This document shows, one piece after another, positions 36,001-39,000 of a stretch of 64,000 nucleotides of DNA. Within the stretch, counting starts at the first letter, position 1; each line of letters starts with the position of its first letter. This DNA is from Escherichia coli (GTDB taxonomy: Bacteria > Pseudomonadota > Gammaproteobacteria > Enterobacterales > Enterobacteriaceae), in the NCBI RefSeq assembly GCF_045037415.1, contig NZ_CP173438.1. One strand, written 5' to 3'. The position numbers are program-made.

Positions 36001-39000
36001 CAGCAGCATACGCAACTGCAATTCAAGCCAGCGATGATCAGGTTGTAAGAAATCGGGCGTATCTTTCCTGTAGAAGAAATCCATCCGTAAGGCCCGCAGG
36101 CAGGAATAGCGTGCCATCATTTGATTGATGTGATTGTCAAGTAAAGCGGTAAAAAACCAGTTTGGTGTGTAAGATTTAGGCATGTTGATGACTCCTGAAA
36201 GTTAATGATGTTTTAAGCTCTGTGAGCGAATTAATGCTTTCGCTCATAATCAGATCTAAAACGGTAATAACTTACAGATGGTATTTATCAGGCATGCTGT
36301 AGCAGAATGGATACGACGGGTTATTAACGATACGCAGCATTATGCAGAAAGAAATGGATTATCTGATGGTATTAGCTAAAGAGATGAGATAAACGAGGAG
36401 CGAATAAAATACAGAATCAATAAACATCACGAAATACTGCAAAACACGCGATAAAAACCCACTACCAGGAGATTAAGAAACATATTACGACCAATAACAT
36501 CATAAACTACAAACTTGCTCTCAGTGAGTCTGAAAAAACGTGTACAAGGCCAACGCAATAAACTTATACGCCCTCATCCAATCTGTTCTTAAGGACATGA
36601 ACGTTAACCGCACACATTACCAGAGTAAAAAATACCACTGGCATGATTTTTACCCTGCATCTTAAACAATACAACCCGAAACAAACATAATCAGGTATCT
36701 CTCCTGTCAATTTCATTGTTTATCCAGCTCTGTTAATCGTTACAGAATCATGGATACCTTATCAAAGAGTAAACATCCAGTTAATCAGTAATGACAAAAG
36801 AATTGATGTTCATCAGAATAGTTAAAACACTTCAGATAAACAATTATCGTTAAGTAAATACAGTTCATGATGGATAAGATTAAAATCAATTACTGTTTCA
36901 GTGAAGACTGATAACAGATGAATATCATCAGTAGAATGGTAGAGGATAACTTATCTGAGTATCGTATGAATTACAGTAGTTATGCCTAATGAAGAAGGAA
37001 GTGGATATTATGATAATGGTGACAATGAAGATTAGACAAAGAAGAGTGTGAGTAAAGACAGAGTGAATATAATTATAGTAATAAGCCTAAATTAAAATTA
37101 TCCATGTTTAATGGGTAAAAATGAACAACTCTCCGTTCTGAATATATCCCTGACAGAACTGTTTCCTTACAAAAATTAGATAAATTCTTTCTTATTCAAA
37201 CCTGAACAACATCTTTTGTCAGCGACAGAAAATATGAACTATCTTTAAGCCACATCATTCTCCCGTAAAAAGGGAGTCGATGTGGCAAAATCATTAGTGC
37301 CCCTTAGCCAGATATTGTTCCATTTCTTCTTCCGGCACCATTCCACCTCCCGTCGCCCACACCAGATGAGTGGCATTACGCAGTTGTTCTGCGCTGAAAC
37401 CGTGCATCTGTTGGTAACTTACTGATGCGCACACGCGCTGAGGCCCGGCCATACCCGCCAGTGCCGATGGTTCAAGACGAATACCTTCTTCCTGCGCCAG
37501 CCAGCCAAGCATGTCATACATGGTTTGATCGCTAAGGGTATAGAAGCCATCCAGCAGACGCTCCATCGCCCGCCCGACAAAGCCCGATGCGCGACCAACT
37601 GCAAGGCCATCCGCTGCGGTAAGGTTGTCGATACCAATATCCTGAACAGAAATCTGATCGTGTAATCCTGTATGGACGCCTAACAACATACAAGGGGAGT
37701 GCGTTGGTTCGGCAAAAAAGCAGTGAACATGATCGCCAAACGCCAGTTTAAGTCCGAATGCGACGCCACCAGGACCACCACCAACACCACACGGCAGATA
37801 GACAAACAGAGGGTTATCAGCATCGACGATACGACCTTGCTGGGCAAATTGCGCTTTAAGACGCTGGCCAGCGACGGAATACCCAAGGAACAACGTGCGG
37901 GAATTCTCGTCATCAATAAAGAAACAGTTCGGGTCAGACTGCGCTGCTTTACGTCCTTCCTCGACGGCAACACCATAATCTTGCTCATATTCCACGACCG
38001 TAACGCCATGGCTGCGCAGTTTCGCTTTTTTCCATGCCCGGGCATCAGCAGACATATGCACTGTCACCTTAAAGCCAATGCGGGCGCTCATAATGCCGAT
38101 TGATAACCCCAGATTTCCGGTTGAGCCCACAGCAATGCTGTATTGGCTAAAGAACTGTTTAAACTCCGGAGAAAGCAGTTTGCTGTAGTCATCTTCAAGC
38201 GTCAGCAACCCCGCTTCCAGAGCCAGTTTTTCTGCATGTGCCAAGACTTCATAAATCCCGCCGCGTGCTTTTATGGAGCCGGAAATGGGCAAATGGCTAT
38301 CTTTTTTCAGTAGCAGTTGCCCGCTGATCGGTTGTTGATATTCCTTTTCCAGCCGTTTTTGCATAGCCGGAATGGCAACCAGTTCTGATTCAATAATCCC
38401 CCCAGTAGCAGCAGTTTCAGGAAATGCTTTTGCCAGATAGGGTGCAAAACGGGATAAGCGCGCATGGGCGTCCTGAACATCCTGTTCGGTCAGGCCAACA
38501 TAAGGTAAACCTTCAGCCAATGAGGTCGTGCCAGGATTAAACCAGGTGGTTTCTTTAAGAGCAACCAGATCCTTTACCAACGGATACTGGGCGATGAGCG
38601 AGTTCATTTTAGCGTTTTCCATAGTACGTCTCTTTGCGCTTAGATGATAAATGACAGCAGGAATGTGCCCGCCAGAGCGATGACTGAAGCGATAAATGTC
38701 GCTGTCGTATAGTATTTAAATGTTTCATTGAGCGTAGCGCCGCAATATTGCTTCACCAGCCAGAAAAGCGAGTCCGTAACGATCGTGCAGCCAATCGCAC
38801 CTGAACCGATAGCAATCGCAATAATTTCCGGGCTGATGTCGGGATACAGCGGCAGCATGGGTGCAACAATTGCCGTTGCCCCCATCATTGCCACCGTAGC
38901 GGAGCCCACTGCAGCATGCAGAATAAGTGCCACCAACCAGGCCAGAAGAATCGGGTGCATATGCATATTGGAGAGAATAACTGCCAGCGTATCAGCGAGA

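Follow-up and report, generated by a model that had tools for sequence, protein, structure and literature searches.

A gene-free, A+T-rich spacer upstream of a YagK/YfjJ-family gene in a common Escherichia coli genomic-island family

In the CP4-57 island of Escherichia coli K-12 (intA-alpA-yfjI-yfjJ), the DUF3987 protein YfjI, a YagK/YfjJ 'Gp2' protein and AlpA are encoded on one strand, and the gap between yfjI and yfjJ is ~150 nucleotides (nt) with no long spacer. The locus described here lies in a 64,000-nt stretch of E. coli contig NZ_CP173438.1 (assembly GCF_045037415.1), termed the window, and belongs to an island family that shares with CP4-57 these three kinds of genes on one strand and, in related island copies, the yfjP/yfjQ/yfjR/cbtA backbone, but differs in possessing two Gp2 paralogs and two spacers of ~1.5 kb. 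One spacer is represented by the tract at 36184-37293, which is bounded on one side by the dsdA stop codon and on the other by the start of a Gp2 gene encoding 188 amino acids (aa). Literature searches on YagK/YfjJ and ROD21-like islands yielded no information about this spacer.

The tract is indeed an A+T-rich spacer free of genes. It is a truncated copy, ~1,040 nt long, of a non-coding spacer of 1,500-1,600 nt that is conserved in the island family, and its description in a first-pass annotation of the window, as an A- and C-rich tract without open reading frames (ORFs) that could be a long leader or a non-coding RNA, holds only partly. Since only the 140-260 nt beside the gene are tightly conserved, the tract looks like ordinary regulatory or silencing DNA and not like a new RNA gene. 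The best explanation, adopted with moderate confidence, is accordingly a promoter and leader joined to an AT-rich silencing or insulating spacer.

The proximal 140-260 nt would serve as promoter or operator plus 5' untranslated region (UTR) of a small Gp2-AlpA gene cluster, which may be read as an excision/replication-control operon, and the remaining ~800 nt would act via composition, not sequence. The AT-rich body would be a nucleation platform for xenogeneic silencers (H-NS, StpA or an H-NS paralog encoded by the island itself), and Rho would probably assist by acting on untranslated transcripts. Such a platform would keep the Gp2-AlpA module off and would insulate it from read-through of the variable upstream cargo, which is dsdA in the window.

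Composition and conservation of the tract

The tract and the two genes that border it are as follows.
35617-36183, minus strand: 188-aa Gp2 gene of the YagK/YfjJ family, RefSeq 'inovirus-type Gp2 protein'
36184-37293: the tract, from the Gp2 start codon to the dsdA stop codon
37294-38622, minus strand: dsdA, flanking the tract on the far side from the Gp2 gene

The tract is the 1.1 kb poorest in ORFs of the whole window, with a longest stop-free run of 52 codons in all six frames and listed ORFs of at most 50 aa. No ORF of at least 25 codons is conserved across variants from other genomes and metagenomes, the tiny ORFs that are still open encode many different peptides, and stop-free runs reach at most 97 codons in 63 unique variants, barring insertion sequence (IS) insertions, all of which bears out the earlier claim that the tract is free of ORFs. 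A 33-aa plus-strand ORF at 36278-36379 was rejected as a gene, being frameshifted in the related loci L004 and L007, and a 20-aa ORF across a purine-rich patch is not kept in L002 or L007.

The plus strand consists of A 38.7%, C 17.0%, G 17.0% and T 27.2%, placing the A content at the 99.8th percentile and the AT skew (+0.17) at the 98.4th percentile of 1.1-kb windows, with a GC skew of ~0. The reported A-richness is thereby confirmed; the reported excess of C over G does not hold for the tract as a whole and is found only at 36384-36783 (C 23%, G 13.5%), with the reverse at 36784-37083 (C 9%, G 20%). These C>G patches alternating between the strands would fit Rho loading on untranslated transcripts in either direction. 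The G+C content is 34% in the tract versus 46% for the window, and with an A+T content of 66% and 93 TpA steps per kb versus 58 for the window, an earlier suggestion of H-NS binding fits the composition of the tract.

Scanning metagenomes for a 22-mer of the leader gave 90 loci, which together with the genome loci yielded 55-65 unique variants, the number being set by the length required. The conservation among these variants, together with other features, divides the tract as follows.
36184-36323, minus strand: most conserved part, -1 to -140 of the Gp2 start, 93-99% identity
36223-36246, minus strand: leader hairpin with the 8-bp stem TGAGCGAA-agcattaa-TTCGCTCA, -63 to -40 in mRNA sense
36324-36445, minus strand: rest of the proximal ~260 nt, identity 85-94%, at or above that of the gene's 4-fold degenerate sites (82-94%)
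36446-37053, strand unassigned: spacer body, AT-rich, with many indels and no ORFs; 60-93% identity, at or below that of the 4-fold sites
36791-36819, plus strand: candidate antisense promoter ATGACA-17-CAGAAT, the best sigma-70-like match in the tract (9/12)
~36985-37053, strand unassigned: purine-rich variable patch, with (GGAGAAGGT)n expansions in other variants
37054-37113, strand unassigned: distal conserved block ATAGTAATAAGCCTAAATTAAAATTATCCATG, ~0.88 majority conservation, the last widely shared part of the spacer
37114-37230, strand unassigned: fading homology and break-point, where alignment to L002 and L004 is lost at ~37225-37235 and the dsdA 3' flank is joined on
37231-37293, minus strand: dsdA 3' flank, no longer island spacer; its hairpin at 37249-37286 has a 14-bp stem and no U-run

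Mean pairwise identity declines from 93-99% at -1 to -140 (55 unique variants) to ~84-87% at -140 to -260 and about 60-85% beyond -260, with modest conservation peaks at 36754-36783, 36814-36843 and 37054-37113; the trough before the last of these shows 0.54-0.64 identity to the window copy. Among six representative variants, identity beyond the proximal 260 nt is 76-93% versus 82-94% at the 4-fold degenerate sites of the gene, so that the spacer body is conserved no better than the synonymous sites of its neighbour, and mosaic segments among the six variants point to recombination. A distal anchor, CCTAAATTAAAA, is located 902-1055 nt from the Gp2 start codon in 53 of 57 variants, and a GC content of 31-35% and an AT skew of +0.17 to +0.23 are found in all 57. 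Thus the sequence of the body drifts approximately neutrally, and its presence, length and composition are retained across variants and genomic contexts.

Conservation between copies or across strains, on which the first-pass annotation had staked its interpretation, proved to be split. The two such tracts of the window are unrelated in sequence, and the tract studied here recurs in 29% of complete E. coli genomes; its conservation among strains is evident in the proximal 260 nt and does not exceed that of synonymous sites beyond them.

The segment at -1 to -140 contains a Shine-Dalgarno sequence AGGAG at 36192-36196 (CTCCT on the plus strand), as well as the leader hairpin and, at ~-80 to -120, a block that does not vary; it is presumed to be the core promoter or operator plus the 5' UTR. 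The earlier reading was right in tying the non-coding region to the adjacent gene. A consensus sigma-70 site facing the gene was not found in this conserved leader, consistent with a promoter of the 188-aa gene that is weak or activator-dependent. Two stem positions of the hairpin vary, solely from G-C to G-U on the gene strand, with a few singleton breaks and no two-sided compensatory changes among the variants; this variation lends weak support to a predicted mRNA-leader hairpin and none to a larger structured RNA.

In the variable patch, the 9-nt repeat (GGAGAAGGT)n is expanded in L005 at 6830-6955, where RefSeq annotates a 41-aa hypothetical protein; the patch looks like a length polymorphism of the variable number tandem repeat type rather than a gene.

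Island family, Gp2 genes and cargo

The tract is present in 1568 of 5426 complete E. coli genomes (29%) according to megablast, with 82-100% identity and in up to five places per genome, and the annotation under it, among the 30 matches listed, comprises only IS insertions (one IS1) and the 41-aa 'hypothetical protein' repeat artefact. Neither the K-12 CP4-57 region nor O157 Sakai SpLE1 contains the tract, and no DNA similarity to the CP4-57 region was detected. Phages showed no similarity to the tract, and plasmid matches were limited to 12 E. coli plasmids with island fragments.

In the intact copies examined (L002, L004 and L115), the genes on one strand follow the order of a 376-407-aa gene, ~1.5 kb of ORF-free DNA, the 243-aa Gp2 gene, YfjI (DUF3987, 534 aa), an ORF-free spacer of 1.5-1.6 kb, the 188-aa Gp2 gene, a ~190-aa gene, AlpA and a 182-aa gene. 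The tract aligns with the Gp2-proximal ~1,040 nt of the spacer between YfjI and the 188-aa Gp2 gene, and intact islands extend another ~500 nt past the break-point, up to the YfjI stop codon. In the window, a dsdCXA/cut cargo block has replaced the YfjI side, and the spacer therefore adjoins the dsdA stop codon. The stop codon is exactly where similarity to K-12 dsdA ends, which marks this dsdCXA block as transposed cargo, and no terminator-like site was scored in the dsdA 3' flank at 37231-37293. The dsdCXA genes (37294-41139) are found inside island cargo beside a choline-utilisation (cutCD) microcompartment cluster, not at the K-12 dsdA-emrY position.

The distal neighbour of the spacer differs among 54 contexts, including several YfjI types, a TIR-domain gene, 274-aa and 292-aa genes, IS21, IS481 and IS3 elements, a sugar-kinase regulator and dsdA. 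In every context without IS interruption, an ORF-free stretch of at least 1027 nt is present; the YfjI-proximal part of the spacer is absent here and from many truncated islands, and the remainder is kept. Related islands also encode an H-NS-family protein and contain a ProQ/FinO-family gene.

The segment from the 243-aa Gp2 gene to the tract carries differing defence-like genes, namely an nSTAND1 NTPase, a TIR-domain protein and YfjI variants (L003 8424-11057; L007 2719-3474; L006, with K-12 abpAB and rnlAB). This segment is suggested to be a cargo or defence hot-spot with the tract as its boundary, and the spacer would then mark the edge at which dsdCXA, TIR and other defence genes, and IS elements are exchanged. 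For annotation, the label of a non-coding Gp2-AlpA spacer is available for a 1-1.6 kb block that ~29% of complete E. coli genomes carry unannotated.

The location of the tract upstream of a YagK-family gene, as had been noted, agrees with the RefSeq naming of the gene at 35617-36183. The 188-aa protein itself falls just below the Pfam cut-offs (PF23343, REP_ORF2-G2P, 26.1 bits versus 27.8; PF11726, YagK_YfjJ_C, 20.5 bits versus 25.8), whereas the 243-aa paralog clears both of them clearly; close homologs of the 188-aa protein have both domains in precomputed annotation. Across 27 sequences, including K-12 YfjJ and the 243-aa paralog, residues H86, H88, Y156, K159, K163, E78, R33 and D35 are invariant, giving the H-x-H and Y..K...K arrangements that correspond to the HUH metal-binding and catalytic Tyr motifs of Rep-type endonucleases. 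A PDB sequence search with the Gp2 profile gave no match, and Foldseek matches of the AlphaFold2 model (pLDDT 86) are weak (E 1e-3 to 1e-2, template modelling score 0.3-0.4), with nuclease domains of parvovirus NS1, adeno-associated virus (AAV) Rep and circular Rep-encoding single-stranded (CRESS) virus Rep recurring among them. Because of the invariant motifs and the recurrent Rep-domain fold matches, the 188-aa protein can reasonably be regarded as HUH-Rep-like.

Homologs with 50-59% identity occur in Citrobacter, Enterobacter, Salmonella, Mixta and other E. coli islands, and their compact upstream regions contain neither a long spacer nor a homologous leader. Proteins with 77-88% identity came from loci whose neighbouring genes are split in fragments, probably through assembly errors, and were uninformative.

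The first-pass annotation had further reported a similar tract before a third YagK-family paralog. The window has just two detectable members of the family (35617-36183 and 62299-63030), so the gene concerned is the second and not the third; the architecture and composition are indeed repeated, without detectable sequence similarity between the two tracts. The second pair is as follows.
62299-63030, minus strand: 243-aa Gp2-family gene, the second family member
63031-64000 (970 nt), strand unassigned: second ORF-poor tract, upstream of the 243-aa Gp2 gene and running off the window end

The plus strand of the second tract consists of A 39%, C 22%, G 16% and T 23%, and nowhere else in the window are the A>T skew and the A+C content as extreme. 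Homologous DNA precedes the 243-aa Gp2 gene in L004 and L007, and in many related loci this second spacer comprises ~1.5 kb of ORF-free DNA which, where examined, ends at the same-strand 376-407-aa gene. In other islands, its composition changes little among most variants (plus strand: A 39%, C 22%, G 15%, T 23%). The second spacer was also observed in L004 at 11116-12593, L052 and L090, and some islands have a 176-aa gene inserted.

Elsewhere in the window, the cdiA ORF (26782-30329, minus strand) encodes 1054 aa and is directly followed by cdiI. The cdiA product in the otherwise collinear L001 has 3262 aa, indicating an internal deletion of ~6.6 kb in the contact-dependent inhibition (CDI) toxin gene. 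An ALIL pseudoknot (Rfam RF01497, 117.6 bits; 56285-56401, minus strand), a programmed-frameshift signal of the IS3 family, is located between the ORFs 56356-56682 and 55469-56359. Overlapping ORFs of 430 and 499 aa at 57042-59778 (plus strand), beside IS3 fragments, have a counterpart in L001 that is annotated as a group II intron reverse transcriptase/maturase (ltrA).

Weighing the explanations

Several observations weigh against a silencing or insulating spacer. The H-NS high-affinity nucleation motif, reportedly tCGATAAATT, is represented in the tract by one 9/10 match at 37177 and one 8/10 match; it is not enriched, as these two sites with at most two mismatches give a density like that of the rest of the window. 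In favour of silencing, TGGATA occurs 6 times versus 0.75 expected, and by hand count GATAA/TTATC occurs 15 times versus ~4.4 expected from base composition, but these enrichments are borderline and not secure after multiple-test correction, as are the k-mer counts of ATGGATA (four) and GAGCGAA (three), the third copy of the latter not being conserved in other variants. What points to H-NS or Rho at this locus is composition only, and we infer their involvement from it together with general knowledge of AT-rich island DNA. The near-neutral drift of the body is also expected of functionless DNA, the distant small-Gp2 homologs (~50-59% identity) have no such spacer, and the plus-strand site with conserved hexamers hints at a more specific RNA-based element which the model does not need.

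Unlikely is the view that the tract acts through RNA, either as a long untranslated U-rich leader or intercistronic spacer or as an antisense RNA starting from 36791-36819, and thereby regulates the Gp2-AlpA module. The flanking genes of intact islands are all co-oriented, and since the conserved leader has no consensus promoter, transcription could start far upstream. All variants retain the T>A skew of the gene strand, which the second spacer shows as well, the leader hairpin tolerates just G-C to G-U changes as read on that strand, and the ProQ/FinO-family gene of related islands would agree with an RNA-based function. The putative antisense promoter points away from the Gp2 gene and its position is conserved in L002. 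Of 65 variants, 50 share its -35 hexamer and 57 its -10 hexamer, and 63 keep a spacing of 17, the spacer sequence itself occurring in 15 versions. This ranks the site 11th of 2811 for the pattern of conserved hexamers with a variable spacer.

Searches for structure weigh against this view. Rfam returned no match in the tract at gathering score and, at E values up to 5, only three chance-level snoRNA matches, and single-sequence fold z-scores for the proximal 267 nt are -1.7 on the gene strand and -2.2 on the opposite strand. In sliding-window RNAalifold with 10 diverse variants, a single window on the gene strand, 36184-36303, stands out (structure conservation index (SCI) 0.90, z -3.2), a signal that comes from the 8-bp leader hairpin, and elsewhere in the tract the SCI is 0-0.3 on both strands with z not significant. 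A structured non-coding RNA or structured long leader is therefore not supported. No intrinsic terminator was found in the tract, no two-sided covariation was seen, and the drift at a neutral rate, the indels and the repeat expansions would fall mid-way through the putative RNA. The small RNA Esr41 of OI-43 was considered and set aside, as it is encoded at another site, between z1181 and z1182, and possesses a terminator, which the tract lacks.

Rather improbable is the explanation that the tract is a functionless remnant, that is, decayed or foreign low-GC DNA hitch-hiking with the Gp2 module, with function confined to the promoter and leader. In its favour, the body changes at least as fast as synonymous sites and abounds in indels, repeat expansions and IS insertions, and distant Gp2 homologs exist without the spacer. 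E. coli normally deletes neutral DNA, however, so the retention of the spacer is unexpected for junk: its length, GC content and skew are kept despite 15-25% divergence and more than 10 upstream contexts. Islands of higher conservation are also present at 36754-36843 and 37054-37113, and tblastn with the products of neighbouring genes from related loci and distant Gp2 homologs detected no remnant of a decayed gene in the tract.

There is a slim chance that each of the two HUH-Rep-like Gp2 genes may be preceded by a dedicated cis element of ~1.5 kb, either an origin or single-stranded DNA (ssDNA)-handling region or a sense-leader/antisense RNA pair. In the former case, rolling-circle-type replication or transfer of the excised island may be served, the gene strand being T-rich as in ssDNA phages; in the latter, a sense leader and an antisense RNA from the conserved putative promoter ATGACA-17-CAGAAT may gate island excision. 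If true, such an element or RNA pair would represent a novel module for control or replication, carried by ~29% of complete E. coli genomes, and the paired spacers would matter more as cis elements of the uncharacterised YagK/YfjJ HUH proteins of E. coli islands.

A cis-acting replication or transfer region, being an inovirus-like origin for the HUH-Rep-like Gp2 or an AT-rich origin served by YfjI as in Staphylococcus aureus pathogenicity islands and phage-inducible chromosomal islands (SaPI/PICI), is very unlikely: the invariant HUH and Y..K motifs with weak Rep-nuclease fold similarity, the conserved hairpin 40-63 nt upstream of the gene, the start of the spacer directly after the YfjI stop codon in intact islands, and the T-rich gene strand before both Gp2-family genes, resembling the viral strand of ssDNA phages, are offset by the lack of origin features. 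Neither the window copy nor the full-length copies of L002, L004 and L041 showed iterons or tandem repeats, their direct repeats being only two-copy, 10-25 nt and at chance level, and DnaA boxes are not enriched (three one-mismatch sites in the tract; a window total of 60, below the shuffle mean of 71). No hairpin or loop motif like that of the 188-aa gene is present upstream of seven paralogous or orthologous Gp2 genes, and no secondary structure besides the one hairpin is conserved. G-to-A variants of the hairpin leave A·C mismatches on one DNA strand, and the YfjI-proximal part is what many truncated islands have lost, with the rest retained.

With a promoter/leader and an AT-rich silencing or insulating spacer as the preferred reading, the locus would be a routine case of AT-rich silencing or regulatory DNA in a pathogenicity-type island. 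The tract is real but ordinary: newly recognised, unannotated AT-rich non-coding DNA in a common E. coli island family.

Comparison with known systems

The intergenic region before gene II of inoviruses (Ff) and the double- or single-strand origins of rolling-circle replicons resemble the locus in that non-coding DNA lies immediately upstream of an HUH-type initiator-like gene, the strand of that gene is T-rich, and a hairpin close to it is conserved. Different from the Ff region, the tract has no extended conserved structure, no phage similarity and no inovirus structural genes nearby. In SaPI/PICI elements, pri-rep is followed by an AT-rich ori flanked by iterons, and in the intact islands AT-rich non-coding DNA likewise comes directly after the DUF3987 gene; unlike that module, the tract has no iterons and persists without YfjI, and no satellite packaging or capsid genes were seen.

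The H-NS-silenced intergenic regions of acquired islands share with the tract a low G+C content, many TpA steps and drift with kept composition, and the tract likewise immediately precedes a mobility-control operon within an island of the pathogenicity type, with an H-NS paralog in related islands. The high-affinity motif was not found to be enriched in the tract. The spacer also stands apart from such regions in being unusually long (1-1.6 kb) and in that each island has two, one before each Gp2-family gene.

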